From: a virus
Taxonomy: Duplodnaviria > Caudoviricetes
Strand: one strand, 5' to 3'
IMG/VR virus record: IMGVR_UViG_3300048496_000021
Location: 31,911 to 95,910 of that record
DNA length: 64,000 bases
In this document: piece after piece, positions 370 to 50,550 of the stretch
How positions within the stretch are numbered: the stretch's first letter is position 1
Layout: the number at the start of each line of letters is the position of its first letter
Made by a program: the position numbers and the translations under genes
Notes under the pieces: generated by a model
The model's database searches: none
Told to the model about the DNA's origin: nothing
What the model saw: only the letters and a program-made list of their open reading frames with translations

Positions 370-427
370 GTGATTCAATTCGAAATAGGGATTACGAGCC
401 AAGGTAGATTATAGGGGAGGAAAGAAA

Positions 428-628
428 ATGAATAAAAAAGCAGTAATTAAAAAATGGCGATTTGCAAGAAATATAGCTCTTGTTTTTTTCTCAATAATAT
501 GTTCGATAGTATTTGCTTTCCATGACGATCTCGGACAAATAAGGGAATATACAATAATATTCCCCGTGCTTTATGGTCTCGACGTTTTAGTTGGTGTTTT
601 AAAGGGGGAACATGAAGAAAAAATTTAA
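428..628 (+). CDS. small membrane protein
   Basis: two hydrophobic segments; GGAGG RBS. Confidence 0.6.
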   Translation: MNKKAVIKKWRFARNIALVFFSIICSIVFAFHDDLGQIREYTIIFPVLYGLDVLVGVLKGEHEEKI

Positions 629-983
629 ATCACAATACATAAAGTATGACAAAGAGTATGATGTTAAAAAAGTGTTCTACAATGGATTTTGTAGATTGGT
701 GATATTTGGACTCTGGTTTGGGTGGACCGAGTTGATTATATGGGTATCTAATTGCCAATGCCTTCATGTGAATCATTGGTTTTTAATGGGTATTGGGCTT
801 GTCGTGAGTTTTGCAATACAGTTAATTTGGTTATTTTTATTAGCGTTGCTCTTTACTGGTCCATTTGGCGGGGCCCTTTCCAGCCTAATAGATAGAGCAT
901 CGGGAGTTCATGTAGGCCGCTCGTGGCCCTATCGTGGGTGGAGTCGATGGTATTACACCAGTGGAGTAGAAAAGATTTGGTAA
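612..983 (+). CDS. membrane protein
   Basis: two TM-like segments; overlaps upstream gene. Confidence 0.6.
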   Translation: MKKKFKSQYIKYDKEYDVKKVFYNGFCRLVIFGLWFGWTELIIWVSNCQCLHVNHWFLMGIGLVVSFAIQLIWLFLLALLFTGPFGGALSSLIDRASGVHVGRSWPYRGWSRWYYTSGVEKIW

Positions 984-1017
984 GTCGAAATAATAATTGT
1001 AAAACTAAGGAGAGAAA

Positions 1018-1245
1018 ATGTCTAATCCAAAAGCAACGAAACTTGAGCAGATCGCAAAAAAAATGAAGGATTTCAACCTTGAAACACTTGAGATGAAAAC
1101 CTTTGTGAATGTTGAACTACCTGGGGCCGATATGGATATGGGTGAAGATTATATGGAGTTAAATCTTGAAGCCATCGACCCTGATCAAGCTAGAGCCCTA
1201 GCCTCTGTTCTGAATACATGGGCTGATTGTGTTGAGCAACATTAA
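1018..1245 (+). CDS. hypothetical protein
   Basis: AAGGAG RBS, ORF. Confidence 0.65.
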   Translation: MSNPKATKLEQIAKKMKDFNLETLEMKTFVNVELPGADMDMGEDYMELNLEAIDPDQARALASVLNTWADCVEQH

Positions 1246-1460
1246 ATTCAAAAGTGACATGGATATACGAAATCTATTTCTTTACATGAGGGTGTGCGCT
1301 ATACAATTGAAAATAATTGCTCTTAAGATTATATCTGGCATTATTATGATTTTCAACGCACTTGCCGACTTAGTGGCATATGCTCCCGTGGTAGTATATT
1401 TCAACTTTTAAACCATGAGATAAAGATATAATTTACGACATACGAAAGGAAGAACCAATC

Positions 1461-2807
1461 ATGAGTAAACTAAAAACGGCTGGCATTAAGGGCCCATGGG
1501 GGATAGTTCAAAACGCCGCCGTATGTTCTAATCAGTTGTCTCGAAGCGCACGGCTGCTTTATGCTATTTTATGCTCTTACGCCGGATCTGATATCGATCG
1601 ATCAGCATTTCCAAGTATTAACACATTGAGAGATAACATGGGAGAGTCAGGCAAGAATGAGTTTAAACCAGCATCTAAAAGTGCAGTACTAAAGTGGTTA
1701 AATGAACTCTATGAGTCAGGATTGATTCGTAAAACCAAAAAGAAAAAAGCCTCCGGTGAATATGTAAATAACACCTACATGGTTATGTATGTACTCTCTA
1801 ATGACCAAGGAGAGCAGTATGCACCGAAAAATAAATTCAAAAATGAAGATTTCATTGAAGAGGGTGGTACTCTGGGGAGTACTACACAAGAGTCACATAG
1901 TACTCCCCAGAGTACCTCAAGTGGGGGGGGGTTGTACTCCCCAGAGTACCAGGGTAGTACTCCCCAGAGTACCCTAATAACACCATCTAATAACACCACA
2001 GGAGTGAATAATAATATTAATCAACCTTCGGTTGATCAAGTGGCGCTTAACACTGAAGCGATATCGAAAGCTGAAAAAAAAGAGCTTATGGATCGATACT
2101 ACGAAAGTGTCACTCAAGAGTTATCCAAGAAAATTGAAGTAAACCTACCAGCAAGAGCACAAAAATATATTTACGGAACTATTCAGCGAGAAGGGATTGA
2201 CAGAGTATTAATTGCTATTAGAAATTATTTAGCTGACCCTGAAAAGATATCAAAAGAATATGATGATATTGAGAAATTATTTTACAATGGATATATGATA
2301 GGTAGATATGTGGCCCGTGAACAAAATTCAAAAGTCAAACAACGGTGCTCAAAAATCATTGAGATTTACAGCGCAATTGCCCAAACCGATCATGATCCAG
2401 AAACTAGTTTTATCGTCGATGCCATTATCAATATGTCCAAAGCGGTAAACTCTCTGGAGACTGTTGGCATGGCTGTTATTGCCAGTGCTTATGATAAGTT
2501 CAACCAAGAAAAGGGCAATCTTGACATCATGAAGGTTTTAAAGTCACCACAATTAATTATTAAATATTCAGGACTATACAATCGAAATCAAGTAGATCGA
2601 TCCATTAAAAAAGCCGCCAAGAAAAACACAGCACCGGATATTAGAATGATGTCAGTAAATGAAATACAGCAACACAATTGGACCCAATACCCTAGTAGTG
2701 AATTAAAGAAATATTTATCCGAAGAACAATATAGTGAATTTATCCAGAATAACTATGATATACCATGGATTGTGAATATATTAACCGAACTCAAGGAATC
2801 CGTATGA
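1461..2807 (+). CDS. phage replication initiator (N-terminal winged HTH), lambda O-like
   Basis: LSRSARLLYAIL..AFPSINTL..LNELYESGLIRK HTH motif; iterons in the central linker. Confidence 0.8.
   Translation: MSKLKTAGIKGPWGIVQNAAVCSNQLSRSARLLYAILCSYAGSDIDRSAFPSINTLRDNMGESGKNEFKPASKSAVLKWLNELYESGLIRKTKKKKASGEYVNNTYMVMYVLSNDQGEQYAPKNKFKNEDFIEEGGTLGSTTQESHSTPQSTSSGGGLYSPEYQGSTPQSTLITPSNNTTGVNNNINQPSVDQVALNTEAISKAEKKELMDRYYESVTQELSKKIEVNLPARAQKYIYGTIQREGIDRVLIAIRNYLADPEKISKEYDDIEKLFYNGYMIGRYVAREQNSKVKQRCSKIIEIYSAIAQTDHDPETSFIVDAIINMSKAVNSLETVGMAVIASAYDKFNQEKGNLDIMKVLKSPQLIIKYSGLYNRNQVDRSIKKAAKKNTAPDIRMMSVNEIQQHNWTQYPSSELKKYLSEEQYSEFIQNNYDIPWIVNILTELKESV
1866..1973. repeat. iterons / putative replication origin: 4 x GTACTCCCCAGAGTACC
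   Basis: inverted copy 1866-1882; direct copies 1900-1916, 1934-1950, 1957-1973; AT-rich tract near 2005-2022. Confidence 0.85.
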
Positions 2808-9334: not shown

Positions 9335-9422
9335 AATTTAGTCTTGTGTATGCGATGGGTGATGTCATCGCATACATATAAGACAAAATTAGTCATCTTG
9401 GCCGAGGATCAACACTTGACAT

Positions 9423-9638
9423 ATGAAACAATTAACATTATCAAAAACGACCCTTGAAACAAAGGATGAGCGCGGGCATGGTACGGAATGCACTATTTCC
9501 AACAATTGGTCGTCAGACAGTTTGACGCTTGAAATTGATTATGCAGACCATTATAATTCATCAAGTGCAAGTATAGATATCGACAAAGAAAGGGCGATTG
9601 AAATTATCAACTTTCTGCAAAGGTTTTATAAAATATAG
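9423..9638 (+). CDS. hypothetical protein
   Basis: ORF whose start lies in a junction motif. Confidence 0.55.
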   Translation: MKQLTLSKTTLETKDERGHGTECTISNNWSSDSLTLEIDYADHYNSSSASIDIDKERAIEIINFLQRFYKI

Positions 9639-9661
9639 CTATAGAATTTAAGGAGATTAAT

Positions 9662-10060
9662 ATGTTTTGGAAGCAGAAAAAATACGAAGGCCCGGACCCG
9701 TGTCCAATGATTCCCAACTACATGATAAAAGCGTGGAGTTGCAAGAGTTTTTCTAGCGGCGAATGCCTAGAGAAGGGACCATTGTGTAAATATAAGAATA
9801 AATTTAAGGTGAAATTTATCAAAGAACTTATCATCACAATAACAATGTTTTTATATGAATGGAAGCTGGAAAGCAATTGTGTATGTGCATGGGATATCCC
9901 AGATCACTCTGATTCGGGATGTTCTGGTAGCTATGGTTGTTATCTATTCCACGACCTCACTTGTGGCGAACATCTTAAGTGTTATGCACCAAGGGTGCTA
10001 AAAAAGAGATGGGTCAAAAAGGAGCAAGCCATTATAGATAAATTGGCAGATGATTTATAG
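9662..10060 (+). CDS. Cys-rich hypothetical protein
   Basis: AAGGAG RBS, many Cys. Confidence 0.6.
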   Translation: MFWKQKKYEGPDPCPMIPNYMIKAWSCKSFSSGECLEKGPLCKYKNKFKVKFIKELIITITMFLYEWKLESNCVCAWDIPDHSDSGCSGSYGCYLFHDLTCGEHLKCYAPRVLKKRWVKKEQAIIDKLADDL

Positions 10061-10078
10061 TCTGACAAAACTACGCAT

Positions 10079-10810
10079 ATGAAACAAAGGAGTAAAATAG
10101 TGAAGCAAAGCATGGATAAAAAAAGTTTAGGCAACAGAATGAAAGAAAATTATGAAAAAGTGTTTATGGCGCAACTGCCGTTACGTATGCCAGTCGTGTT
10201 AAGACTAGACGGGAGGGCCTTTCACACATTCACAAGAGGGTTAGCCAAGCCATACGATTTAGAATTTTGTAAGAAGATGGACAAAACGGCAAAATACTTA
10301 TGCGAAAACATACAGGGTGCTGAAATGGCATATGTTCAAAGCGACGAGATTTCTATACTATTACACAACTACAAAAGATTGAATTCGGAGGCATGGTTCA
10401 ATAATGAAATTCAGAAAATGGCAAGTATTTCCTCGGGGCTAGCTTCATCCTACTTCACGTTGAACGGATACGGAAAACTCGCACAATTTGATTCAAGATC
10501 ATTTGTGTTGCCAGAGAATGAAGTTTGTAACTACTTTATATGGAGACAACAAGACTGGGAACGCAATTCTATACAGATGTTAGCGCAAAGTCTCTATTCA
10601 CATAAGGAGTTGCACGGCAAAAATAATAACATCTTGCAAGGCATGTGTTTCGATAAAGGGGAGAACTGGAATGATCTTTCAACTTATTTGAGGAGAGGTA
10701 GAGCAGTCGTAAAAGATAGCGAAGGTGGATGGTGTGTAGATGCTGAAATTCCGAAATTTACGGCAGATAGAGCATATGTAGAAAAACTATTGAGTGTGAT
10801 AGAAGAATAG
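10079..10810 (+). CDS. tRNA(His) guanylyltransferase / Thg1-like 3'-5' polymerase (likely start 10100 or 10112)
   Basis: RMK.YE, RLDGRAFHTFT, YVQSDEIS, FDSR, YFIWRQQD..RNS motifs. Confidence 0.92.
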   Translation: MKQRSKIVKQSMDKKSLGNRMKENYEKVFMAQLPLRMPVVLRLDGRAFHTFTRGLAKPYDLEFCKKMDKTAKYLCENIQGAEMAYVQSDEISILLHNYKRLNSEAWFNNEIQKMASISSGLASSYFTLNGYGKLAQFDSRSFVLPENEVCNYFIWRQQDWERNSIQMLAQSLYSHKELHGKNNNILQGMCFDKGENWNDLSTYLRRGRAVVKDSEGGWCVDAEIPKFTADRAYVEKLLSVIEE

Positions 10811-10916
10811 CCAAACATACGATATTCGAATAGGTGGGGCATTAAAACCACCATCAAGTGTCCATCCCAGCCACCTTTTAGGTGTCGAAAGATGTGTTAC
10901 GAAAAAGCGAGAAGGC

Positions 10917-11168
10917 ATGAATAAAAAAGAACTGCACCTAGAAGATCTTACGGAAAAGGACAAAGAATACCTGTACAGTCACATTAAATTGAACAACTCG
11001 CAATTGTACAGTGATGTAGAAAATGGCTTAAAAAACGGAATGCCGCTGGGCTACATTATTGAGGCTCTCGAAGGAAGCTCTCTTCCTGATAATATAAAAA
11101 AAATATCAATAGATCTTTTAGAGTGGAAATATGATCAAATAATATCACATTCGAAACAGGCATTGTGA
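10917..11168 (+). CDS. hypothetical protein
   Basis: ORF between junction motifs. Confidence 0.55.
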   Translation: MNKKELHLEDLTEKDKEYLYSHIKLNNSQLYSDVENGLKNGMPLGYIIEALEGSSLPDNIKKISIDLLEWKYDQIISHSKQAL

Positions 11169-11183
11169 CAAAAGGAAAATCAA

Positions 11184-11372
11184 ATGAGCAATAAGAAGTA
11201 TAAAGTGATTATAACCTGTCCAGACTGTACAGGAGTAGACTTTCAGGGATGTGGAGATGGTTATCCATGGGAGCTGGATGAAACATTCGACACTATCGAA
11301 GAAGCCAATGATGCCGGAGACGAGGCAACTGGCGACACATGGGAATATGAAGTAGTTCCCGAAGAAATCTAG
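11184..11372 (+). CDS. small acidic Cys-containing protein
   Basis: CPDC..GC; RBS. Confidence 0.55.
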   Translation: MSNKKYKVIITCPDCTGVDFQGCGDGYPWELDETFDTIEEANDAGDEATGDTWEYEVVPEEI

Positions 11373-11670
11373 AAATAAAAGAAAGTTTATGCAAACAGAA
11401 TTAATCTTAAGGATATTAAAATGAAAGAAAAGATATTGCACCATCTTGGTTTTAAAACTGTAAAGTGGGCGATCGAAAACGGCTTCACGAATCACGGCAA
11501 ATATTATTTCGGAATTATCCCGCAAAGGACATTGGGGGTGCGAAATGTTGATTTTGCGTAGACTTTTGTCGTCAAGCGTTTGTACGCAATTTAAACGTAC
11601 ATCAAACCTATTTCGGTATATATTCTATATACCGTTTGACAAGATAAGATGGAAAATCAAAAAGCTCTTT

Positions 11671-12510
11671 ATGGGTGAACTTATTTTAGATAATGGCGTT
11701 GGTCGGCTATTAAATTTACTGATCAATGCAAAAGAACTAGAAGGCAATAGTAAAAGTCATCTTTGCTGGTGCTATTTATTAAACATTGATTTAGACAACT
11801 CAACAAAACCTGAGTTTTGGAAAAAATATAGTGAGGCGATGGAGTTACCGGATATTGCCAAATTACAAATTGAAACACATCTGAGCGGGACATATAATTA
11901 TAAGAAATATTTATCGTGGTATACAAATACAAGAAGCGCCTTTGATAATCATGAACTTAAAGGATCATGGGTTAGTTTTACAAATGGTATTACCAATGGC
12001 GACCTAGATTCTTTAGGCCATGCTATGAATATGTTAGCAACACAATTTAGTGAAGAAAAAATCAAAGTTAATGACATAAAAGAGATCAAAGATAATATAT
12101 TAATCTTAATTGAAGAAATAAGCGATTCAAAAATTGATCCAAAGCTGAAAAAATTCATACTGGAACAGTTGAATAACTTGCATTATTGTATACAAAATTA
12201 TCATATTAATGGCATAGATTTTGTTGAAAAAACAATGAAATTATTAATCGGCTCTTTCACTTCTGGAGCACAAGAAGTCAATGATCTAAATAAAAGTGAT
12301 ATAGGTAAAAAATGCACTTCATTTTTTGCAGAGTGTTTTAAAAAGTTAATACCAATAACCTTTAGAACTAGTGGTGAATATTTGGTTGCAAAAATAACTA
12401 TGATGTTATCTGGTGATGTTGAAATAATCGACGACATACAAGCAGAAAAAAATATTGTAGACGGCGATATTGTAGAACTAGAAATACCTAACCAACACAT
12501 CGATCCATAA
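11671..12510 (+). CDS. IS passenger protein, unknown function
   Basis: long AT-rich ORF; ATG 11671 is the likely start. Confidence 0.65.
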   Translation: MGELILDNGVGRLLNLLINAKELEGNSKSHLCWCYLLNIDLDNSTKPEFWKKYSEAMELPDIAKLQIETHLSGTYNYKKYLSWYTNTRSAFDNHELKGSWVSFTNGITNGDLDSLGHAMNMLATQFSEEKIKVNDIKEIKDNILILIEEISDSKIDPKLKKFILEQLNNLHYCIQNYHINGIDFVEKTMKLLIGSFTSGAQEVNDLNKSDIGKKCTSFFAECFKKLIPITFRTSGEYLVAKITMMLSGDVEIIDDIQAEKNIVDGDIVELEIPNQHIDP

Positions 12511-13477
12511 GTATTTCAAAGTTATCTTCATCAAACCGATGATTGTACCGAAAACAAAACTCATTCACATAAGCCTGTAGGTATTCAACCGATACATGAT
12601 GAAAACTCCCAATAATACCACGCTTTAAAATCGCCCAGAAGCTCTCTACTGTATTAACATGAGTATTCCCTCTAACATATTGCCCAGAGGAATGATTTAC
12701 AATTGAATGCTGATAACCATTTTTACCGAGAATCCGGTATGATCTAAACTCATCGGTGAAGATATTCGCTGACTTTGCGGCCACCTCTTCAATGATCAAG
12801 AGTAGTTGTTTTCCGGTAAGCTTTTTACTTTGCTTGTTTGGCAGAGCTACACGAGCATGAATCTTTTTGTTATCCCGGCCAAGAACACCGACAACTGGAG
12901 TTTTGCGAGTGCCGCGACCTCGCTTGTGAACTTTGCCATCACCCTTACGGGGCTTCCCGCCAACGTAAGTTTCATCTACCTCAATGATAGTTTCAAACTC
13001 TTCACGCTCTACAGTATCCCCCATTGCATTTCTAATCTCGTGCATCATGCGCCAAGCGGTCTTATATGATCCACCAATACCCCGGTGAAGTTGGCAAGCA
13101 GAGACGCCCTTCTTTGCGTTGATCATAAAGTGGAGAGCGTAAATCCATTTTCTGAGATCGATCTTTGTGTGGTGAAAGACACTTGATGTGAAGATAGAGA
13201 AAGAGTTGTTACATGCGTTACATTGGAACTTCTTTGGAGTTTTCTTTCTATGTGTGACCTGAACAGAGCCACAATGTGAGCAATAAACGCCATGTGGGTA
13301 TTTGCGTTCAATGAACTCTTTAATGAAAGTCATCTCGTCAGGGTATCGGGCGAATACTTCAAAGATACCGACACCAATTGATTTCGGGTCTTTCGGCTTT
13401 TTGCCTTCCTCCTTGAGCTTTCTTTCGAGTTCGTCGTTTTCTTTCTGGCAAGCTGTTCTGTTGTCTTGATTGATCAT
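12488..13477 (-). CDS. IS1595 family DDE transposase
   Basis: Zn ribbon CSHC/CNAC, EVDETYVGG, FTDE, VNHS, HVNTVESFW..LKR, YVNEFCFRYN. Confidence 0.96.
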   Translation of the reverse strand: MINQDNRTACQKENDELERKLKEEGKKPKDPKSIGVGIFEVFARYPDEMTFIKEFIERKYPHGVYCSHCGSVQVTHRKKTPKKFQCNACNNSFSIFTSSVFHHTKIDLRKWIYALHFMINAKKGVSACQLHRGIGGSYKTAWRMMHEIRNAMGDTVEREEFETIIEVDETYVGGKPRKGDGKVHKRGRGTRKTPVVGVLGRDNKKIHARVALPNKQSKKLTGKQLLLIIEEVAAKSANIFTDEFRSYRILGKNGYQHSIVNHSSGQYVRGNTHVNTVESFWAILKRGIIGSFHHVSVEYLQAYVNEFCFRYNHRFDEDNFEILMDRCVG

Positions 13478-13488
13478 GTGTATACAGT

Positions 13489-13534
13489 AACACACGGACG
13501 TGTGTTGTCAATTAAAAACACACAAAAGTGTGTT
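13489..13534. promoter_or_regulatory. two palindromic operators AACACAC-N4-GTGTGTT between the divergent transposase and XRE regulator
   Basis: 13489-13506 and 13517-13534, flanking minus-strand TTGACA at 13506-13511. Confidence 0.75.
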
Positions 13535-13575
13535 AAAAGTAGTCGTTTTACAGGAAAAATGTTACTTTTTTACTT

Positions 13576-13791
13576 ATGGAAACGAAAACCAAAGATGAAA
13601 TGCTGGATTATTTATATGAAACGCTGGAAAAAGTTAGATCCGAGAATAAATTAACCAAAAAAGAGTTTGCCGAAAAGGCCGGGTTTTCTCAGAACTGGTA
13701 TCAACAAGCTTTAAAGCAGAAGCGGGATATTTCCTATACAGATGTATCCCGCATGGCTGCTCACTATAAGATTAACTTACAGATTTTTTAA
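13576..13791 (+). CDS. XRE-family HTH regulator
   Basis: LTKKEFAEKAGFSQNW helix-turn-helix. Confidence 0.8.
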   Translation: METKTKDEMLDYLYETLEKVRSENKLTKKEFAEKAGFSQNWYQQALKQKRDISYTDVSRMAAHYKINLQIF

Positions 13792-14258
13792 GACGAATCT
13801 ACTTGAGCTTACGTCGCTCTTCATCGATCCGTGCTTGTTCTCGTCGTGCTTCTGCTTCGATCTTACGTAAATCTGACTTCAATCTCTGTTCGGCTTGACG
13901 AACTTTTGATTGAACCTGACGCATTTTCGATTTAAAAGCACTAGCGTTAAAACGTGGCATGTTGTGCCCTCTAGATAAATTTCCGATTTAGACTTGACAA
14001 TATTATGTCGATTATTAAACTTGGTTCCCTTTGGGGGGTCAGTTTTAGTCCTTGCGGATCGCATATCATTGAAACTTCAACTTCCAATGATATGCGCTGA
14101 CATCTCTATCAGATTAAATATTAGAGATCTTATGTCGCATCTTTACCAATATCTACATTTAGTTAACAAAAGTCACCTGCCTTGTCAACTCAATGTGGAT
14201 AACTTTTATCAAAAAGTTGAAGCTATATAATTTTAAGAAATTAATTGGATCTTTTATC

Positions 14259-14504
14259 TCACTTCAAATGTTCAGTAAACCACTCTAACGGCTTACCGTA
14301 AGCCTTAGCAAAGTCAGCCAGTTCTATGACATCGAGCCGTCTTTGCCTGTTCTCAAGCTTGGAAATATAGTCTTGACGCCAGCCTAACTTATCGGCTGCC
14401 TCTTCTTGAGTGAGATCAGCCTCTTTCCTTGCCTTGATTAGCTTTTCAATCAAGACTTTATACTCTGGACGGTGAATGGTATTGTATTTTTCCACTTTAC
14501 ACAT
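14259..14504 (-). CDS. XRE-family HTH regulator
   Basis: ARKEADLTQEEAADKLG..ISKLEN.QRRLDVIEL. Confidence 0.88.
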   Translation of the reverse strand: MCKVEKYNTIHRPEYKVLIEKLIKARKEADLTQEEAADKLGWRQDYISKLENRQRRLDVIELADFAKAYGKPLEWFTEHLK

Positions 14505-14557
14505 TATATGCGATAATTGAATATATGCAAAATTCGCATGACTAAAGAGGTGGGCAA

Positions 14558-14755
14558 GTGGAAAAGTCTTTAATGTATGAAGAAGCGAGACTTGAAAAAG
14601 CTCGCATAGAGGGCGTTATAACAGGTTTGACATTAGCAATGGAACTCAGCTTTGATCCGGGGTGTATCATTAAAGCAAAAGATGAATATGAAAGCCTGTT
14701 AAACAAAGTTTTAAATGATCCTGAAAAATACCTAGCGGGTAACAATGAGTGTTAA
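14558..14755 (+). CDS. IS passenger hypothetical protein
   Basis: GAGG RBS, ORF. Confidence 0.5.
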   Translation: MEKSLMYEEARLEKARIEGVITGLTLAMELSFDPGCIIKAKDEYESLLNKVLNDPEKYLAGNNEC

Positions 14756-15086
14756 AGTGGCTGATTACTGGATTGTAGCCGCGAAGATAAGCCCTAAAAA
14801 TAAAAACACATATAGCAGGCTTTATGTAAGGCCGTACATTAAAAACTACGGACTGGACAAAGTTGTTGAATTAACAAGAAAAGAATTCATGGCTTTATTA
14901 AAAAGCGGAAAATCATTCATTTGTGCAAGATATTTCCCCGAAACAAAGACTTACGAATATAGCGGTTCTGTCTTTATGCATTATAATGATGAACAACGGA
15001 AAGCTTATCTTTGGGAAATACCGTATACGTTTACAAAAGATTACATGGAAGACTTGCCGGAAAAAGTGCCTGACGATTGGGATTAG
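14745..15086 (+). CDS. DUF3892-like protein
   Basis: ADYWI.A..; C-terminal D.MEDLPE pattern. Confidence 0.5.
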   Translation: MSVKVADYWIVAAKISPKNKNTYSRLYVRPYIKNYGLDKVVELTRKEFMALLKSGKSFICARYFPETKTYEYSGSVFMHYNDEQRKAYLWEIPYTFTKDYMEDLPEKVPDDWD

Positions 15087-15310
15087 CTTGCCGATCTTTG
15101 ACATGAACCACTTTAATGAAGATAACTTTGAAATACTTATGGATCGGTGTGCTGGGGGGGGGGTAATAAGAAATATAAATATCGTTGACAATCTAAGTAT
15201 GTTATTTATATTTTCTTTGATTGTGTTATGTCACAATTAATTTTTAAAAGGTTTAAGTCACACAAAAATTGTGTTGACAATATGTTTTATATGTACGATA
15301 TTATTATTGA

Positions 15311-15416
15311 TACACTATGCAAAAAAGTTGCATTATTAACACTGCTCAAATATGAGCGAATAACACTGAGCCAAAGGCTCTAAATTCTCCTAAGCCACCC
15401 TTCGGGGTGGCTTTTT
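15311..15416 (+). ncRNA. candidate leader/antitoxin RNA: 3 x (ACACT + 5-6 bp hairpin) followed by an intrinsic terminator
   Basis: hairpins ATGCAA/TTGCAT, GCTCA/TGAGC, GAGCC/GGCTC; terminator AAGCCACCC-TTCG-GGGTGGCTT-TTT; TTGACA at 15274. Confidence 0.6.
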
Positions 15417-15419
15417 AAT

Positions 15420-16139
15420 ATGCTTATGAAAAAAAGAACTGTAATTTTAATTGATGGTCAAAACCTTTTTTACTCATTAAAAAGCCTAGGGATATATGAA
15501 AAAAATATCCACTGGTCAAAATTCTTTTCTGACTTAATTAGTGAAGAAGATGAGCTTGTTAGGAGTTACTGGTTTAGACCAGAAAAGATTCATGATTCCT
15601 ATTTAACACGAGATAATATTACTACCACTATAATTAAAAAACATTGCGGGAGTTATTTGGATGACTTCAAAAGAACAAAGCAGATACCAAGTCAACATGA
15701 ATCGACAATAAATGAAAAAATTGAAGAAGTTGAAAGATGGATAAATGATCAAAAGCGTAAATTTTCACAAATTGCCTATAATTATGATCAAATATCTCTC
15801 AATTATGGTGACATAGAAATTGTAAAAACAGGAATGGTTAAAATTGATCCCCATAAAAAAATGTATTTATCTGAAAAAGGTGTTGATATTGCGCTAGCTG
15901 TGAAAATGATTTCATTAAGTGTTGAAAACAAAGCAGATAAAATAATATTAGTTAGTGGAGATTATGATTACTCTGAAGCGATTAAATTTGTTAAAAATAA
16001 TATGACAAAATTACATATTGTAAAATTCCATAAGGGCTATCCTCCAACAAATAAAAATATGTCAAGAGATCTTTCTGTTTTAGCTGATAAAATAATTGAC
16101 ATTTACCAGTCTGACATTAGCGCTAAATATACTGTATAA
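15420..16139 (+). CDS. NYN-domain (PIN-like) ribonuclease
   Basis: IDGQNL, EKGVDIALA, LVSGDYDY catalytic motifs. Confidence 0.9.
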   Translation: MLMKKRTVILIDGQNLFYSLKSLGIYEKNIHWSKFFSDLISEEDELVRSYWFRPEKIHDSYLTRDNITTTIIKKHCGSYLDDFKRTKQIPSQHESTINEKIEEVERWINDQKRKFSQIAYNYDQISLNYGDIEIVKTGMVKIDPHKKMYLSEKGVDIALAVKMISLSVENKADKIILVSGDYDYSEAIKFVKNNMTKLHIVKFHKGYPPTNKNMSRDLSVLADKIIDIYQSDISAKYTV

Positions 16140-16693
16140 AATCCATGTCCTTTGCGGGATAATTCCGTATTATTTTGTTCCGATATATTTAAAAGATCCA
16201 GGCAACGGTATGGAAATTGTGGAAAAGCATATCCTCCTATACCCGCTTACGGCACTCTTGTCGTGGTGTGAGAATATTTTCAACGCTATAGAGTCAGTTC
16301 TATTCGGGGAGCCGAATGGTTTCAGGTTTAAAATCGGCGATAAGCTGAAGAGTGGCAAGCAATGAGAGATAGAAAAAATGAGATTTTATGGCTAAAATAA
16401 GCAAAATTAAAATATTACTATTCGGTCTTCAGGTAGTGTGCTTCATTGTCTCTGTAGTTATGATTGCAGATATGAATTTCTTTGGGATGCCGTTCGCCAT
16501 AATGTCTGCTATTCTTGCCTTTATTGTACCAAGAATCTAAGTCAAAAAATGAACAAATGGCAGGTTTCATAAAAACGCCCGCCATGGTTATTTTTTGGGG
16601 AACTTCCAAAAAATGTAATTAAAAAACCCTTTACATAACAATCGATACATTTTAATTATGTCCCATTAGTAGAGATAAGGACTCTAATAGGAC

Positions 16694-28066: not shown

Positions 28067-28111
28067 AGTGCCAAGAGGTACAAAGACTTTGAAAATTTAA
28101 AAGGAGCAACT

Positions 28112-28432
28112 ATGAAATTCGGAAAAAGCGAAAAGATCGATATATTGCGAAAAAATTATCAGTACAGAGGTGATCCAGAAAAATTTGAACCCGGCGATTT
28201 GATTATACAGCGAGATGGGACGTATCTGGGGACCACCGTCCCTGGGGCGAATGAGGTATGTATACTCATTGAATACAGGGAGACAGTCAGCACAGGTAAG
28301 GGTGATCTAGTCAGGGACCAAGACATAATTCTAGGTACTGTTGATAATGAAGGTGATTTCATGATCTTCCCACATGCATCATGGAAGTTTCGCAAGGCAA
28401 CCGACTCAGAAATCAATCCACCTGTAGAGTGA
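28112..28432 (+). CDS. hypothetical protein inside the RNA cluster
   Basis: AAGGAG RBS before ATG 28112. Confidence 0.7.
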   Translation: MKFGKSEKIDILRKNYQYRGDPEKFEPGDLIIQRDGTYLGTTVPGANEVCILIEYRETVSTGKGDLVRDQDIILGTVDNEGDFMIFPHASWKFRKATDSEINPPVE

Positions 28433-28586
28433 CGGTGAAATTCTCGTACTGATTCAAGTTTCGGCGCGGGATGAAGAGGTATGAAATGCGGATTCCAACC
28501 AATGAAGCACAACATTCCTTCGGTGAACGGGAATCAGAATCGCTCTCTGTGGTGGAGAGTAGATCGTGAACGTAATAGCCGTAAAA

Positions 28587-28670
28587 CCCCCGTTAAGCTC
28601 ATGGCAAAAGCCTTCAGGTAGAGCTCCTGACCTCGTTCAGGGTGTGCCAGTTCAAATCTGGCACGGGGGA
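28587..28670 (+). ncRNA. tRNA-like RNA with a 6-nt anticodon loop and D-loop hairpin insert
   Basis: CCCCCGT/ACGGGGG; GCTC..GAGC D stem; CCTGA-CCTCGT-TCAGG; GCCAG-TTCAAAT-CTGGC. Confidence 0.7.
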
Positions 28671-28826
28671 AAGGGTCAATTCATAATATTGTGAATTGTT
28701 CTCCGGTACCGCCGGACCTCCGGTGTAAAATATAGGGTAGGCATCTGAAATGATAGGATGCCGAGAACAGCTTCGGAGGGTTTCGCTCCACAAGGGTGAT
28801 CACGCGCCCGCCGGGGCTTTACTTTA

Positions 28827-28931
28827 GGGGATGTGGTGAAACGTGAGACACGCACAGGATGCTAGATCAAGGTCTTGTGTGCTTATTGGATGCCATCTGA
28901 TAAGTTGCGGGTTCGAATCCCGCCATTCTCA
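28827..28931 (+). ncRNA. tRNA-Leu-like RNA with an extended anticodon arm and long variable arm
   Basis: GGGGATG/CATTCTC-A; GCACAGGAT/GTCTTGTGT stem with 11-nt loop; GCGGG-TTCGAAT-CCCGC. Confidence 0.7.
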
Positions 28932-44690: not shown

Positions 44691-44912
44691 ATGAAGAAAA
44701 AATCAACATATCTCACAGACGACCAGGGTAACCCATCATCGACACGCCTCAATATCGCAGTATCACTCGGGGTTGTGATTATGATGTCAGTGGCTACGGT
44801 TGCGGCCGTATTCATGGACAAAGACCCGATTCCGATTGTTGGAGTTATCACCTCGCTCCTATTGTACGCCGGTGGCACAAAGGTTGGGCAGAAAAAATAT
44901 GAGGCAAAGTGA
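44691..44912 (+). CDS. holin-like 2-TM protein
   Basis: LTDD.GNPSSTRL + two TM segments + basic tail. Confidence 0.55.
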   Translation: MKKKSTYLTDDQGNPSSTRLNIAVSLGVVIMMSVATVAAVFMDKDPIPIVGVITSLLLYAGGTKVGQKKYEAK

Positions 44913-45332
44913 ATTTTAAGGATACATTATGGTTGTAACAGAATTTGAGCTTTTGGCAATGGATAAAGAGACAGGAGAGCGAGTCGTATTTCAATTTTCA
45001 GATATGTACGTTAGTGCCTTTGGTGAAATCAAAATAGAAGACATGGAAAAATCTTTAACTGTTAAGGGTGGAGCAATGCACCCGGACATACAAATAGAGC
45101 TTCATTCACTTGGTCGCGGTCGCCCGGTGGTTGCAATCAAGGATATGTCGTCGGGAAATGATTCTGTAGGCGATATGTGGCAAGAGACAAAAGTCCTTCA
45201 ATCCAACCAGCCAATTGAAGACATTATGCAATGGGCATTTTCTGGAAAAGCCTATTCCGATAAACGCCTAACGATCACATTGCCTGATCCTCGCTAACGA
45301 CAAGAGGTTACTTGTAAAACTGGAGATAAGAA

Positions 45333-46328
45333 ATGGAAAAATACACACTACCTACCGGGCATTTAATCGTTGACGATTACAGCAAGGGGAAACTCGAAAC
45401 TTTATCAATTGGCGATTATGGCAAAAGTAAAAATGTAAAAGCCGACTTTCTCGGGTATAGGAACGAAATCAACGGAGTGCCAAGCGGTGACATTATGCCA
45501 TTGTCGGAAAAGTGGGTTATCACATTATCGACTCAATATGGGTGCCCAATGAAATGTAATTTTTGCGACGTACCGAAAATAGGTTTTAACGGTAACGCAA
45601 CACCTGCTGACATGAAAAAGCAGCTAATGGCCGGAATACGGGCAAACCCTGCGGTAAATTATACAGAGAGGCTGAATATTCATTTTGCCAGAATGGGTGA
45701 GCCATTATTCAACACAGAAGACGTCTATAATTTCACTGCCTATTTTCTAGGCCGAAAAGAAAAGTTTCAATCCGAAACAGGGCTCAGGGTGGAAGTAATA
45801 CACCCCGTCCTGACGTCCATGGTCCCACACTCCGCCTCCAGAATTGGTGAAAAGTTGCGAAGCTGGACGCATATGAAGAACGACAAGTTTAATGGGCAAG
45901 CTGGCCTACAGCTCTCTATAAATAGTACGAACGAAAAACAGCGCGATACAATGTTTGATGGAATGCAATTGTCTCTTGATAAACTCGGCGCTGTATGTGA
46001 GACATTGCCCATGCCACTTGGGCGTAAGTACTGCTTAAATTTTGCGTACTCTTTGGACTATGATATTGACGGAGAGATATTAAAAGAATTTTTTGACCCG
46101 GAAATGTTTATGTGCAAAATCACACCGATTCACAATAATTTATCATGCCGAGAAAGGGGCATTGGAACCATTGATGGATACAAATCATACAGCCCATACC
46201 GCGCCGCAGAGAGGTCTCTAAAAGATGCCGGATTTGATGTACTTGTCTTTGTGCCATCCATGGATGAGGAGAATGGGCTGATTACATGTGGAAATGCTAT
46301 ATTGAGCGGTTCAGAGATAAAGTGTTAA
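45333..46328 (+). CDS. RlmN/Cfr-like radical SAM enzyme
   Basis: STQYGCPMKCNFC, FARMGEP, LQLSINST, C-terminal TCG. Confidence 0.85.
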   Translation: MEKYTLPTGHLIVDDYSKGKLETLSIGDYGKSKNVKADFLGYRNEINGVPSGDIMPLSEKWVITLSTQYGCPMKCNFCDVPKIGFNGNATPADMKKQLMAGIRANPAVNYTERLNIHFARMGEPLFNTEDVYNFTAYFLGRKEKFQSETGLRVEVIHPVLTSMVPHSASRIGEKLRSWTHMKNDKFNGQAGLQLSINSTNEKQRDTMFDGMQLSLDKLGAVCETLPMPLGRKYCLNFAYSLDYDIDGEILKEFFDPEMFMCKITPIHNNLSCRERGIGTIDGYKSYSPYRAAERSLKDAGFDVLVFVPSMDEENGLITCGNAILSGSEIKC

Positions 46329-46664
46329 AGATTTCGAAGATGACTTTACGAAACTAAAGGAAAAGCAATGGAAGCAGGAAGGAATAACAAGCCATGTCTA
46401 GACTGCAAGTCGCCAACACCAATGCATCACGTTGACCCGTTCGACCTACCTCCAAGAGAGCGCCAAGAGCGCGGGGAATGTCCTTCCTGCGGATTACGCT
46501 TTGGGTTCGTAGTGGAGCTGGATATGTACGGCGATCACAATCGATATCCTGTACGAGAGGAAGAGAGTGAGGCGACACCTGTTCTATAAAAATGGTTGAC
46601 GCTGTGTATACGTGTGTATAAGCTTCTATCATGAGAGAAACTCATGGAAAACTGGAGCTTATAA

Positions 46665-47938: not shown

Positions 47939-48688
47939 ATGATTAAAAAAACAGTTGAAATATCAAGCTTATCCGATCTTAAAAAAATGAAAGAAAGGAG
48001 CAATGAGAGCAGGGAAAGTAAGAAGCTTTTTGATGACAAAATAATTCTTGTTGACCCGAAAGCGCTCCACAAAAATCCACATCAGGATCGATGGTTTACA
48101 GACGAGTATGGTGATAAAAGAAAAAAAGAGCAGCTAGTTTCGTCCATTAAGAAGTACGGGGTAAAGACACCACTAAAAATCACAAAAAATAATATTATAA
48201 TCGGAGGCCATTCTCGATGTGCGATCGCGAGGCAGCTTGAAATGTCAAAAGTGCCCTGCCAAATTGCCAGATACGACCTGGAAGAAATTGAATTAAGGAT
48301 GCATCATATCGAGGATAATTATCTTCAGAGAGGTGATGAGGATAAGAAAAAGGAGGGTATGTATAAAGAATTACAAAATCTTGTCCGTAGCCAATATCCA
48401 AATTGGATGCAGATGGTTTCTGATGATAGTGTTGGCGCAGAAAAAGAATTAATAAAAATTGGAATGGATCAATCTACGGCAAGACGGATGACTAGTGCCG
48501 ACAAGAGGCTTGTCTCCCGATACCGGAATGACCTCAAAAAAGAGCCAATAAACGAACATGCGGAAATTGACTTATACATTTATAAGATTAAAGTCGCATA
48601 CAAAAAGATGGCGACCAAAGAGAGCAAAGAAGAGGCTTTAATAAAAATAAAATCCATACATGATGAGCTGATAAAAGTAACTTTATGA
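47939..48688 (+). CDS. ParB/Srx-like nuclease domain protein
   Basis: LVSSIKKYGVKTPL..IIGGHSRC.IAR.L. Confidence 0.85.
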   Translation: MIKKTVEISSLSDLKKMKERSNESRESKKLFDDKIILVDPKALHKNPHQDRWFTDEYGDKRKKEQLVSSIKKYGVKTPLKITKNNIIIGGHSRCAIARQLEMSKVPCQIARYDLEEIELRMHHIEDNYLQRGDEDKKKEGMYKELQNLVRSQYPNWMQMVSDDSVGAEKELIKIGMDQSTARRMTSADKRLVSRYRNDLKKEPINEHAEIDLYIYKIKVAYKKMATKESKEEALIKIKSIHDELIKVTL

Positions 48689-48706
48689 AACAATGGAGAC
48701 TTTAAA

Positions 48707-48859: not shown

Positions 48860-48896
48860 TCCGTCAAAAGATTGCATATGAAACAAGGAGAAAGAA

Positions 48897-49289
48897 ATGT
48901 TAGAAATAAACTATAAAATGGAAGGGGTCAAATGTCTTACTTCGTGTCCATTCAAGAAAAACATTAAGGTCAACTCTGGTGCATGTCAGGGGTGCAGGCA
49001 TTTTCGTGGTGATTGGCGATTGAGTGGGTTTATCAAGTGCCTTGCAAACGAGAAACAAAGGAAAATTCCATCGATAGCCGCAGCAAAGAAAATTATCAGA
49101 GAGCAGAATGAGGAGATCGGTCGCCTGGTGCAAGAAAATTCACTCTTAGAGAGGGCATCTTATGCGAGAAAACAATGGACAAGAAGGGCAAAGGAAGATG
49201 CTGGATACCCTGATTCTGTAAGTTTCGATCATGTCTGGGTAGATGCTCTTGCAGCGTTAAACAAAGTACGCTCAAAAGACCGATTATGA
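48897..49289 (+). CDS. Cys-rich / coiled-coil hypothetical protein
   Basis: AAGGAG RBS. Confidence 0.65.
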   Translation: MLEINYKMEGVKCLTSCPFKKNIKVNSGACQGCRHFRGDWRLSGFIKCLANEKQRKIPSIAAAKKIIREQNEEIGRLVQENSLLERASYARKQWTRRAKEDAGYPDSVSFDHVWVDALAALNKVRSKDRL

Positions 49290-49305
49290 AACAAGAGGCA
49301 AGAAA

Positions 49306-49647
49306 ATGGACGATATAAAATATATTAAACGACGCTTCCCGGATTCCCACAAAATATTTCTCAAGCAATTCGGAGATGAGTGGATAATTCGACAATTCAG
49401 GGAGAACAGGCAAAAACTTGCCATAATAAAAAACACCGAGGTGATCGCTCCAGATCTGAGGTATAAGCCAGGAACTTATTTTTTATTTCATCGGTGCAAA
49501 GTGTTCGCCGAAGATCATGATGGCGGCAAATGGGATGGGACGTATAAAATAATTGCGACATTTAAGTGCCCAAAGGATTACACAAGTAGTGGTCACCATA
49601 CGTTTGAATTATTCAGCGATACTCAGTTCAAAGAAATCGTAAAGTGA
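49306..49647 (+). CDS. hypothetical protein
   Basis: ORF between junction motifs. Confidence 0.6.
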   Translation: MDDIKYIKRRFPDSHKIFLKQFGDEWIIRQFRENRQKLAIIKNTEVIAPDLRYKPGTYFLFHRCKVFAEDHDGGKWDGTYKIIATFKCPKDYTSSGHHTFELFSDTQFKEIVK

Positions 49648-49678
49648 CAAAAGATAGGTTATGAAACTGGAGACAAAT

Positions 49679-49918
49679 ATGAAAACATATGAGGGAGTAA
49701 TGACAATTAAATGGTATAAAAACGACAACGGTGGCGATAGGCGGCCACTGACAATTGATACACAGAACAAGGAGACACTTCGAGCTGAACTTAGTCGGAT
49801 AAAAAAAGATTTTATGACGAAAGGTGAAGTGAAAGATACTCTGGATGAACGCGGAATGCGCATCACAAAAGCGGTATTGCCGTATAGCATCAATATAGAG
49901 GTTACAGAAAGACTGTGA
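49679..49918 (+). CDS. hypothetical protein
   Basis: GGAG RBS. Confidence 0.6.
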   Translation: MKTYEGVMTIKWYKNDNGGDRRPLTIDTQNKETLRAELSRIKKDFMTKGEVKDTLDERGMRITKAVLPYSINIEVTERL

Positions 49919-49941
49919 TTACTGATTTCAAAAGTGACTTT

Positions 49942-50550
49942 ATGAAACTACAAATAGTCGTATCATACCATGATAATCGGTGGCAAGCGAGACCGAGAAT
50001 CTTGACGAACCCCGAGGCGAGAAAAAGACGGGTAGATTTTAAGGCTCAACATAGGCAATTTCTAGAGTGGGATATTTGCGACGCCCCAGAAGTTTTACTG
50101 GAGCATATCCGAAAATACTCTCTTGACCACCAAGTAATTATCTTGAATAGCAAAAAGAAGAAAAACTATAAGTTCTCAGAGATCATCTTAAATACGACCT
50201 ACCAAAAGTATCAAGATGACGTACCATATCTGGTCAAGGTCTGTCACTCTATCGATGGCGAGATATTCAAGGACGGAGCTCTTCTCGCTGTATTGCAGAA
50301 CATCGAAGATACGAGCGATGCCAAAAACGCAGCACATACCGCATTTGATCCAATATGGAAAAACGGACATATGACGCGAAGCGAGGCATATCGGTGGCTG
50401 TCATGGAAAATGAGAACCGAAAAACTATTTTGTCACATAAGCATGTTCGACCAACAGCAGTGTCAAGAGGCTATAGCGCATTGCAAGAGGTATTTTCAAG
50501 AACTATCAGAAAATCAACTTGCAAAAGTGCCCATACGAAATTATGATTGA
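49942..50550 (+). CDS. protein with DUF3268-like C-terminal domain
   Basis: AHTAFDPIWK..RSEAYRWL..HISMFD..C. Confidence 0.6.
   Translation: MKLQIVVSYHDNRWQARPRILTNPEARKRRVDFKAQHRQFLEWDICDAPEVLLEHIRKYSLDHQVIILNSKKKKNYKFSEIILNTTYQKYQDDVPYLVKVCHSIDGEIFKDGALLAVLQNIEDTSDAKNAAHTAFDPIWKNGHMTRSEAYRWLSWKMRTEKLFCHISMFDQQQCQEAIAHCKRYFQELSENQLAKVPIRNYD

Follow-up and report, generated by a model that had tools for sequence, protein, structure and literature searches.

Our question was whether a short two-armed sequence that recurs at the gene junctions of an uncultured phage marks the borders of mobile single-gene cassettes, as the initial annotation had proposed with integrons in mind, or is a binding site for a phage regulator, which it had named as the alternative. 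The 64,000-nucleotide stretch of DNA in which the sequence was noticed (the window) belongs to a 95.9-kb genome that is complete by a 244-bp end overlap, and the 31.9 kb outside the window lies upstream of it. Our tentative answer is that the motif acts as an expression signal specific to this lineage, probably as a compact promoter or an element of the 5' end, and would also be a crossover point for slot-wise gene replacement; we put the probability of this combined reading at roughly 45%.

Sequence and distribution of the motif

The motif is 20-24 bases long and has the consensus nnGWCAAAAG-N5-TTATGAAAC. Scanning the complete genome with a position matrix at a threshold of at least 13.5 bits gives 35 matches on the + strand and 0 on the - strand, while the same scan of 30 dinucleotide shuffles has means of 0.67 and 0.17, so the single orientation that had been claimed for all copies holds genome-wide. 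A matrix derived solely from 12 of the initially listed sites finds 14-16 additional sites on the + strand and 0 on the - strand in the 31.9 kb outside the window. Within the window, CAAAAG-N5-TTATGAAAC with at most 3 mismatches has 15 matches vs 3.4 expected, a number reached in 0 of 100 shuffles. All 16 of the sequences initially quoted are present at their coordinates, and 13 of the 14 main copies, as well as the supposedly weaker one at 11148, score 13.8-26.6 bits (Table 1). Two of the listed copies are degenerate, those at 377-400 (6.8 bits) and 1425-1448 (2.6 bits).

The motif does consist of two arms that enclose a 6-nt spacer. As had been described, the inner arms form an imperfect inverted repeat, TCAAAA-N6-TTATGA, which is complementary at 5/6 positions. 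The A at position 7 is invariant (35/36 sites) and disrupts the ATAA/TTAT dyad, and positions 6, 18 and 19 vary by transitions only. The motif fits no promoter consensus that we know of, be it sigma-70, ECF, sigma-54 or other. The phage has only one close relative, L125 (TerL 71% identical), where the motif occurs in an array located elsewhere in the genome; it is absent from the more distant relatives that were scanned.

Table 1. Copies of the motif in the window, with their matrix scores, core types and surroundings. Sites and partners marked genome are given in coordinates of the complete genome.
Position	Strand	Score (bits)	Core type	Surroundings
377..400	+	6.8	I' (ATAGGGAT)	Degenerate; before gene 428-628; core 6/7 identical to genome sites 3144 and 3478
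982..1005	+	16.7	J	Upstream stop at motif start; ATG 12 nt past motif
9406..9429	+	16.7	L'	First site of array R4; after hairpin behind 412-aa gene; 71-aa ORF without SD is called from the ATG inside the motif
10062..10085	+	24.9	D	Ahead of Thg1-like gene; positions 5-24 identical to genome site 28296
10882..10905	+	20.7	E	Core as genome site 28586
11148..11171	+	16.3	F	Core as genome site 29019; overlaps final 20 nt of upstream gene
11372..11395	+	14.5	G	Motif and 5'UTR 89% identical to genome site 27088 (37 nt, to ATG); coding sequences unrelated
45297..45320	+	13.8		Before radical-SAM (RlmN/Cfr-like) gene 45333-46328
46331..46354	+	14.5	K''	After radical-SAM gene
48668..48691	+	22.5	K (TAACTT)	Overlaps ParB-like gene end
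48861..48884	+	26.6	A	Partner at genome 4052
49269..49292	+	25.6	B	Partner at genome 4320
49644..49667	+	26.5	C	Partner at genome 5390
49925..49948	+	25.7	K'	At start of 211-aa DUF3268 gene
50518..50541	+	15.7		Inside DUF3268 gene 3' end; just ahead of called start of N6/N4 methyltransferase gene

Position relative to genes

About 30 small accessory genes are preceded by the motif, whose copies stand at the gene junctions of five arrays of small genes and reach a density of 12 sites in 3.2 kb, with a site at nearly every junction. The clustering in such arrays, the lack of copies in the operons for terminase, portal, head and baseplate, and the bracketing of single genes (five in a row at 48.7-50.5 kb, and also the radical-SAM and Thg1 genes) are as initially described. 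The claim that the motif lies mostly on or just after a stop codon is not, as the location of the upstream stop ranges from 44 nt ahead of the motif to motif position 21. The motif is tied instead to the start of the downstream gene, whose RBS follows it immediately. The distance from the end of the motif to the ATG peaks at 12-13 nt, and in this main class the SD lies within 0-3 nt after the motif; a second class, at 24-29 nt, has an AU-rich leader. The sequence upstream of the motif is without conservation. A regulatory site fits this tight link to the downstream RBS better than the integron-like reading does.

A sigma-70-like promoter is located 1-2 kb upstream of each array, so the motif could act inside a polycistronic RNA. 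The first site of array R4 directly follows a hairpin and has no such promoter in front of it. Neither intrinsic terminators nor regular hairpins were found in the arrays. The two boxes of the motif itself, which are about 13 nt apart, are too close for the -35/-10 geometry of the sigma-70 family, and no -10-like element was found 16-17 nt past TGAAAC.

Core types and their order

It had been stated that the core differs at every site. This is wrong, since 8 pairs of sites have identical 7-mer cores vs 0.33 expected, and the partners are mostly outside the window, at distant loci, in the same order and between unrelated genes. Identity in the same-core pairs is confined to motif positions 5-20. 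It reaches 0.98 over positions 10-16, compared with 0.36 in other pairs, and equals the background at positions 1-4 and 21-24. The 16-nt inner part thus defined comes in about a dozen discrete types, and these are colinear: arrays R1 and R5 share the order A-B-C, and R2 and R4 share L-D-E-F. In L125 a type C core (L125:1142) is followed by a type K core (TAACTT, L125:1435), which is the order of this phage, and the neighbouring genes are again unrelated. Because the order of the types persists although all that stands between them is replaced, the sites behave as fixed slot boundaries. To this extent the idea that they are borders of swappable accessory-gene units is borne out, both in the genome and in its one relative. 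The integron-like system that had been suggested is not, as the site has only 24 nt, the core accompanies neither neighbouring gene, and the tyrosine recombinase that was to be sought in the rest of the genome was not detected, nor was any serine recombinase, in six-frame searches of the complete genome.

Comparison with gene-shuffling systems

Integron attC sites are folded palindromes of 57-141 nt that move together with the gene upstream of them and depend on an IntI integrase next to them. The motif shares with them a recombination-site-like appearance, a single orientation and a place at the junctions of single-gene units, but none of these defining attC features applies to it. By our analysis it rather resembles the repeat-mediated gene shuffling of T4-type phages. 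The PeSLs (promoter-early stem-loops) of these phages (Arbiol et al. 2010, PMC2839356; Comeau et al. 2014, PMC4122927) are likewise repeated regulatory elements that span the stop of one gene to the SD or start of the next, are concentrated in hyperplastic regions ahead of small ORFans, and are crossover points, proposed or shown, for gene insertion, deletion or replacement by homologous recombination. However, PeSLs are about 50-100 nt long and have a sigma-70 consensus promoter and a stem-loop terminator, whereas the motif has 20-24 nt and neither consensus nor hairpin, and its middle part, unlike theirs, occurs in discrete types of fixed order. Unlike the putative promoter function of the motif, the promoter activity of PeSLs has been shown, and so have their mini-circles.

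Alternative explanations

The conserved spacers could also come from natural cassette exchange by a tyrosine recombinase that is not phage-encoded, such as a host Xer-type enzyme. The arms would then bind the enzyme and the 6-nt spacer would be the overlap region, which must match between partner sites, so that different spacers define the slots and an A-B gene is exchangeable only with another A-B gene. One mechanism would cover both the conserved arms and the conserved spacers, and it agrees with the 5/6 inverted repeat around the spacer and with discrete, colinear spacer types beside outer arm bases and flanks that vary with the neighbouring genes. The pdif sites of the dif modules on Acinetobacter plasmids, on which XerC/XerD act (PMC13141974, PMC7399989), also have two arms and a 6-nt spacer and flank accessory genes in large numbers; sites with the same spacer pair, and one module can take the place of another when the two have the same spacer on the left and the same on the right (PMC13141974). 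At 9/10 positions the inner core CAAAA-N6-TTATG agrees with the CATAA-N6-TTATG of dif/pdif, and the right arm of the motif is better conserved than the left, like the XerD side in the pdif table (PMC13141974). The likeness to recombinase sites noted at the outset is therefore sustained by the sharing of spacers, but it does not extend to the arms, which at about 9 nt look 2 bp shorter per side than the 11-bp arms of strong consensus in dif/pdif and are disturbed by the invariant A at position 7, or to the orientation, as all sites are direct repeats while pdif modules need adjacent sites that alternate. For pdif, recombination has been demonstrated and its enzymes, the host XerCD, are known, whereas for the phage motif neither a recombinase nor a recombination product was seen. 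Additionally, same-type direct repeats coexist in this genome 270 bp (H), 13.7 kb (D-G) and 76 kb (A-C) apart, and this counts against an active and efficient site-specific recombinase, which would delete the DNA between them, essential DNA included. The dif likeness was noticed only after comparison with many known sites. Overall we regard this explanation as unlikely.

Two other explanations keep the regulatory function and leave the conserved spacer types unexplained. The motif may be an RNA element in long early transcripts, either a cleavage site of a sequence-specific endoribonuclease or a translational operator, that would release or regulate the individual cistrons immediately ahead of their SD. 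The strand specificity, the direct abutment to the SD, the variation by transitions only and the arrays inside long terminator-free units behind sigma-70-like promoters are all consistent with this, and the phage has a gene for an NYN-domain (PIN-like nuclease) protein (15420-16139) as the candidate nuclease. The translational operator would have a counterpart in the start-associated sequences (SAS/ESAS) of cluster K mycobacteriophages, which are 13-nt asymmetric repeats of unknown function a few bases upstream of starts, conserved across related phages before unrelated genes (Pope et al. 2011, PMC3203893), although the SAS contains the SD itself and the motif is just upstream of a separate canonical SD. 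What makes the RNA element doubtful is that no stable or covarying structure of the motif was found (the covariation of positions 6 and 19 amounts to 3 sites, p ~0.04), nor an Rfam match, nor a RegA-like repressor in the genome. The two distinct motif-to-SD spacings argue against direct ribosome contact, and the first R4 site has no promoter in front that would supply the transcript. The sites could otherwise be operators at which a DNA-binding protein of the phage silences or times the arrays, and this regulator would be a dimeric HTH protein or else the 594-aa protein with its sigma-4-like HTH. About 33 asymmetric sites of one orientation, in short junctions overlapping stops and starts, with two conserved and partly dyad-symmetric boxes one helical turn apart, would suit such a regulator, and a roadblock could control arrays that lie behind sigma-70-like promoters without terminators. 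The parallel is the stoperators of cluster A mycobacteriophages, roughly 30 such sites at which a repressor, gp71 in L5, blocks elongating RNA polymerase (PMC9283540, PMC6550527). Stoperators, however, have 13 bp and occur in early as well as late operons of a temperate phage whose repressor is known, whereas here the structural operons are without sites and no repressor, integrase or other lysogeny gene was found in the genome. A site at nearly every junction far exceeds what a roadblock needs, and operators do not require a fixed abutment to the SD. We regard operators as unlikely too.

Proposed function and exchange

In our preferred reading, the motif would be a strand-specific signal that sets the 5' end of the message of each gene, most probably as a compact promoter with the start site in or adjoining TTATG. 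The late promoters of phiKZ (T-3ATG+1) and AR9 (A-11ACA-N6-T A/G+1), as well as the T7 type, are compact promoters of phage RNA polymerases (PMC7598289) that have at most about 20 nt, a conserved 4-nt box that precedes the conserved TATG or TA of the presumed start by about 10 nt, and a short leader to the SD, as the motif does. The resemblance is of geometry only, since those phages encode their own RNA polymerases and none is detectable here, by a search whose control was uninformative. It might instead be the host RNA polymerase that reads the motif, after redirection by a factor from the phage. A single candidate for this factor was seen, the 594-aa protein (genome 6939-8723), and its divergent ECF-like sigma domain would provide a putative link to the motif.

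A plain promoter does not explain the conservation of the spacer between phages with 71% TerL identity. In our reading the sites are also the slot boundaries described above. Whole genes with their own RBS may be exchanged by crossovers inside an identical patch of 16-25 nt, the likely machinery being phage single-strand annealing. Genes for ERF and a YqaJ exonuclease are present, together with a weakly matching NinB/Orf-like protein. Short-homology recombination by ERF/YqaJ can explain the exchange, although an identity of 16 nt is short for annealing of the ERF type. Regulatory cassettes occur in duplicate in this genome: in pairs G and H the motif and the 5'UTR are shared as far as the ATG and the coding sequences are not. 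A 115-nt sigma-70 promoter with its UTR is also duplicated (90% identity) ahead of two unrelated genes. A point against our reading is the sole paralogous gene pair found, in which the homology stops at the stop codon, with a site at one copy only.

Motif and distribution

The junction element described in the initial annotation as a recurring two-armed 24-bp site is real and highly non-random. All the sequences quoted there are present in the DNA and most of the listed copies are sound, although those at 377 and 1425 of the window are degenerate. With an iterated position matrix we found 35 matches of at least 13.5 bits on the + strand of the genome and 0 on the - strand, against means of 0.67 (+) and 0.17 (-) matches in thirty dinucleotide shuffles. 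A genome-wide matrix scan had been suggested at the outset, and when only 12 of the window sites listed there were used as seed it gave 14-16 extra + sites outside the window, in 31.9 kb that had not been available to the initial annotation, and no - strand site. This prediction serves as an independent check of the motif.

The consensus is nnGWCAAAAG-N5-TTATGAAAC, and CAAAAG-N5-TTATGAAAC is found 15 times in the window at up to 3 mismatches, where 3.4 would be expected. Conservation is limited to positions 3-24, with about 19 bits in total, and there is none upstream of the motif. The two-arm layout is a fair description, since the inner arm TCAAAA is complementary to TTATGA at 5 of 6 positions, with 6 nt of spacer between the two, and the common orientation holds for every site (35/35 on the + strand). 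The clustering was also borne out, with the sites falling into five arrays (R1-R5) and the structural and replication operons having none. A literature search on the motif string returned noise only. Upstream of the window, at genome 26336-26380, two motif copies abut with a 21-nt offset (CCAAAACAAGAATAATGATAC / TCAAAACAATGATTATGCAAC), an arrangement that may reflect either a slot without a gene or tandem duplication.

Features of the phage genome (genome coordinate = window coordinate + 31,910)
Feature	Location	Strand	Remarks
Array R1	genome 3144-5598
Array R2	genome 25806-29019
Array R3	genome 32287-32892
Array R4	genome 41316-43282
Array R5	genome 77207-82428
Paralogous 73-aa genes	window 44691-44912 and genome 2934-3155		81% identical in DNA
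GpA-type terminase; portal			annotated genes
Major head protein; tail sheath	upstream of window
Baseplate genes; 2190-aa protein			2190-aa protein fibre-like by composition
594-aa protein	genome 6939-8723, upstream of window		head module; divergent ECF-like sigma-70 domain and InPase domain
ERF; YqaJ			recombination genes
NinB/Orf			weak match only
Several DNA methyltransferases; Thg1-like gene; NYN-domain gene
IS1595-family DDE transposase	window 12488-13495	-	Pfam E=1.6e-36
Three tRNA genes (Met-CAT, Thr-TGT, Gly-GCC)	window 26975-28931		1.6-kb stretch, little coding
Radical-SAM (RlmN/Cfr-like) gene	window 45333-46328		one site on each side

Ordered core types

The core, the variable middle of the motif, had been described as different at every site, and this does not hold. 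Eight site pairs have an identical 7-nt core, where column shuffles give an expectation of 0.33 (maximum 3 pairs in 2000 shuffles). Naming the core types by letters, we found the partners of same-core pairs in different arrays, with the order of types preserved. The series A-B-C at genome 4052, 4320 and 5390 recurs at 80771, 81179 and 81554, and the series L-D-E-F at 25806, 28296, 28586 and 29019 recurs at 41316, 41972, 42792 and 43058. Type G is common to R2 and R4, with its position rotated.

In these same-type pairs identity is restricted to motif positions 5-20. It reaches 0.98 over positions 10-16 (0.36 in other pairs) and is 0.33 over positions 1-4, equal to other pairs, with little difference from other pairs over positions 21-24 (0.72 vs 0.71) or in the 12 nt after the motif (0.44 vs 0.40). 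Genes beside same-type sites are of different lengths, and neither tblastx nor blastp detected any similarity between them. Cores of 16 nt are kept in order and everything between them is replaced, thus the cores behave as slot boundaries.

Relation to gene starts

The initial annotation had placed most copies on or just after a stop codon as well as right before the next RBS or ATG, but the motif is linked to the start of the next gene and not to the stop codon of the previous one. The stop varies from 44 nt before the motif to motif position 21, whereas distances from the motif end to the ATG peak sharply at 12-13 nt, and here the SD comes straight after the motif. In a second spacing class, at 24-29 nt, the leader is AU-rich, with the form AATTAAATTTTAAGGA. 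The sites occupy the stretch from one gene's stop to the SD or start of the following gene and are concentrated in plastic regions before ORFans. The first site of array R4 comes right behind a hairpin, with no sigma-70-like promoter ahead of the array, and at this site the ATG within the motif is called as the start of an ORF that lacks an SD. Small upstream ORFs beginning at the motif's ATG were considered and rejected, as they have 1-18 codons and no conservation.

In the site pairs G and H, the motif and the 5'UTR are common exactly up to the ATG. A 115-nt cassette of a sigma-70 consensus promoter (TTGACA-17-TATATT) and 5'UTR is found at genome 110-225 and 1870-1983, in copies 90% identical that stand before two unrelated genes with the homology stopping at the ATG; the first copy is repeated at window 63876-64000. 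Together, the G and H pairs and the duplicated sigma-70 cassette place the motif where the promoter stands in a portable regulatory cassette. For the 73-aa genes, the sole paralogous gene pair found in the genome, homology ends at the stop codon. Only the copy upstream of the window is followed by a site, whose left arm consists of the gene's last codons (E-S-K-stop).

Comparison with relatives

A single close relative of the terminase was found, 71% identical and encoded on a Logan contig of 12.9 kb (L125). This contig has motif copies at 813, 1142 and 1435 and a weak copy at 438, in a small-gene array that occupies a different genomic place, upstream of a homologue of a 175-aa gene. The array is completely different from the phage arrays and has no genes in common with the phage. 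Its cores ATAGGT and TAACTT are types C and K, in the order seen at genome 81554 and 81835, and the genes between the C and K sites are unrelated in the two. A 7.3-kb block at window 9335-16693, between a 412-aa AAA-like gene and terminase-proximal genes, is absent from L125, which has only a hairpin and a sigma-70-like promoter in its place. The block contains R4, the Thg1 and NYN genes, the IS1595 element and several sigma-70-like promoters and terminators. Judged against this one relative contig, the left end of the insertion is just before the site at 9406 and the right end is not at a site.

The phage is rare. A 7-kb stretch had no DNA match in a set of 50,697 phage records, and a terminase peptide search in IMG/VR gave nothing. 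The motif is absent in relatives with terminase identity of 50% or less, and an alignment-based terminase search gave 17 loci at 30-39% identity with the motif in none. A generic motif scan of IMG/VR returned single chance matches only. When typed cores were used as queries (C, D and A against IMG/VR, C also against JGI metagenomes), the outcome was either nil or single chance matches, and core A matches a conserved stretch common to low-GC (~30%) contigs of ~95 kb. At the protein level, the ParB-like protein has no homologue above 54% local identity (44% for the best-scoring match) and the radical-SAM protein none above 66%. Ten array proteins are singletons at 90% identity, and the other contigs carrying them are 100% identical copies.

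Function of the motif

The motif is best read as a lineage-specific expression signal tied to gene starts that is also the ordered boundary of swappable accessory-gene slots. Its abutment to the SD, the two discrete leader classes, the arrays without terminators or regular hairpins and the way in which R4 opens all favor an expression signal. So do the G, H and sigma-70 cassette pairs and the TATG at the presumed start, which with a 4-nt box about 10 nt upstream matches phiKZ/AR9 late promoters in geometry (PMC7598289). Against a promoter, no RNA polymerase is detectable in the phage: the large ORFs gave no such match in Pfam, PHROGs or PDB, the DxDGD-type polymerase motif is absent from the 2190-aa fibre-like protein, and the search for a T7-type enzyme (PF00940) had no match but is uninformative, as its control also matched nowhere. 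Phage-RNAP promoters of the T7-like or nvRNAP-like kind go with a phage-encoded polymerase. The genome does contain a sigma-like domain. Spacing between the two boxes is too short for -35/-10 recognition, with no -35/-10 hexamers at 16-18 nt spacing in the motif, and a sigma-70-like promoter already stands 1-2 kb upstream of each array. The sole sigma-like domain is ECF-like, but TGAAAC is not followed by a -10 element of the ECF type. We looked for a -35 GAAC-type box, a 16-17 nt spacer and a -10 CGT-type box, and rejected TGAAAC as the -35 box, as there is no conserved element 15-18 nt downstream and this position is already within the ORF. The genome yielded no set of ECF-type promoters. 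The motif also does not appear to fit sigma-54, sigma-H, TcdR-type sigma, CII, IHF, the Spo0A box, the LexA/Cheo box, the DnaA box or archaeal BRE/TATA, failing each on spacing or invariant positions.

The motif may instead act in the RNA, through processing by the NYN-domain protein or as a translational operator like the start-associated sequences of cluster K. RegA was looked for in the genome and not found. An RNA hairpin between the arms is weak, with the covariation of positions 6 and 19 resting on 3 sites, and a terminator hairpin upstream of the motif, as in the promoter-early stem-loops (PeSLs) of T4-type phages, was rejected on its folding energy (-8.8 vs -8.3 kcal/mol in random windows). 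A DNA roadblock like the stoperators, the repressor sites of L5, is another possible role. Stoperators belong with an immunity repressor and a temperate lifestyle. Here no integrase was found in the complete genome and no immunity repressor was recognised among the scanned ORFs, which include only part of the small ORFs. None of the expression, RNA-level or roadblock readings alone explains the conserved spacers.

Exchange of genes between sites

The pattern is compatible with two routes for the exchange of genes. The more conservative would be homologous recombination inside a 16-25-nt identical patch, and the phage has ERF, YqaJ and an Orf-like mediator that matches weakly. In T4-type phages, homologous recombination at PeSLs shuffles ORFans in this manner (PMC2839356, PMC4122927). 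PeSLs and our sites share the stop-to-SD/start location, the plastic regions and the position before ORFans, but PeSLs have a sigma-70 consensus promoter and a stable stem-loop, and neither is present here. We regard the element described here as a mobile regulatory junction akin to PeSLs, from which it differs in its small size, its lack of a known promoter consensus and its typed, ordered cores.

We consider it unlikely that the sites are instead dif-like targets with differing spacers for a host tyrosine recombinase, in a natural recombinase-mediated cassette exchange where the dozen or so spacer types would mark out ordered slots and co-infecting phages would swap genes slot-wise with no recombinase of their own. 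The inner core CAAAA-N6-TTATG, with its 6-nt spacer and TTATG, is close to the CATAA-N6-TTATG of dif/pdif, and conservation is stronger in the right arm than in the left. In addition, replacement of pdif modules takes place between sites whose spacers are identical (PMC13141974). In this genome, identical spacers recur in colinear pairs between unrelated genes. However, the arms of about 9 nt are shorter than the two 11-bp Xer arms (table of PMC13141974), the invariant A7 stands where dif has T and breaks the dyad, and the outer XerD arm is AAAC and not TTAAAT. Neighbouring pdif sites alternate in orientation (C and D modules), whereas all 35 sites here are direct repeats on the + strand. The genome also contains same-type direct repeats at distances of 270 bp, 13.7 kb and 76 kb, and their coexistence argues against site-specific recombination because an efficient recombinase would delete the intervening DNA. 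The 270-bp pair, of type H at genome 27409 and 27679, has an 86-aa gene between its sites. It had been suggested that a tyrosine recombinase might be encoded elsewhere in the genome, but none was found: PF00589 had no match at E<=1 in a six-frame search of the complete genome (the control was positive in 14/14 genomes) and Pfam and PHROG scans of the larger ORFs gave none. A six-frame search of the complete genome likewise found no serine recombinase.

An integron-type mechanism, one of two precedents named in the initial annotation for its single-gene cassettes, is not supported, because the core does not move together with the gene on either side. An integron needs an IntI-type tyrosine recombinase beside the array, and none was found in this genome. 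Its attC sites are 57-141 nt long, with paired R''/L''-L'/R' boxes, and are bound to the upstream cassette, whereas here only positions 3-24 are conserved and same-core sites have unrelated genes both upstream and downstream.

Phage accessory genes, such as those for anti-defence and host takeover, turn over very fast, and their exchange without breakage of the genome is only partly understood. In this phage, a very short, well-defined junction element with a typed, ordered middle gives each accessory gene a slot that can be addressed. Should the pattern prove general, it would provide a rule for locating mobile genes and points of exchange in the genomes of uncultured phages, as well as a natural template for slot-by-slot phage engineering. 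If the sites did turn out to be a dif-like system with differing spacers, this would be remarkable, and if the element were also a new type of compact promoter linked to a sigma-like protein of the virion, it would represent a new early-transcription strategy.

Genome and gene content

The window covers bases 31,911-95,910 of an IMG/VR virus record of 95,910 bp. The phage is present in samples IMG 3300060479 and SRR35513484, and its relative in SRR30410461. The last 243 nt of the record (window 63668-64000 region) repeat the first 244 nt (genome 1-244) with 99.6% identity, therefore the genome is complete, circular or terminally redundant, with a length of ~95.67 kb. The record is classed as 'linear' despite this end repeat. 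The phage is myovirus-like and nearly all its genes are on the + strand.

The sigma domain of the 594-aa protein covers residues ~95-300. ECF models align to it end to end at E ~1e-6, which is below cut-offs, its protein-atlas feature score is 0.96 and the top hits are all sigma factors. Its InPase domain is of a type known from virion-packaged polyvalent or 'minor head' proteins. The protein could be a sigma factor that enters together with the DNA.

The radical-SAM protein matches PHROG 24834 at 1.5e-110 and belongs to a very large family on phage-sized contigs, with 4412 homologues at E<1e-30, the best of them 60-66% identical. The IS1595 transposase is one of the few minus-strand genes and apparently part of an insertion sequence within the phage genome; its nearest genome match is only 41% identical. 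The tRNA genes, together with the Thg1-like and NYN-domain genes, hint at a tRNA repair or processing module.
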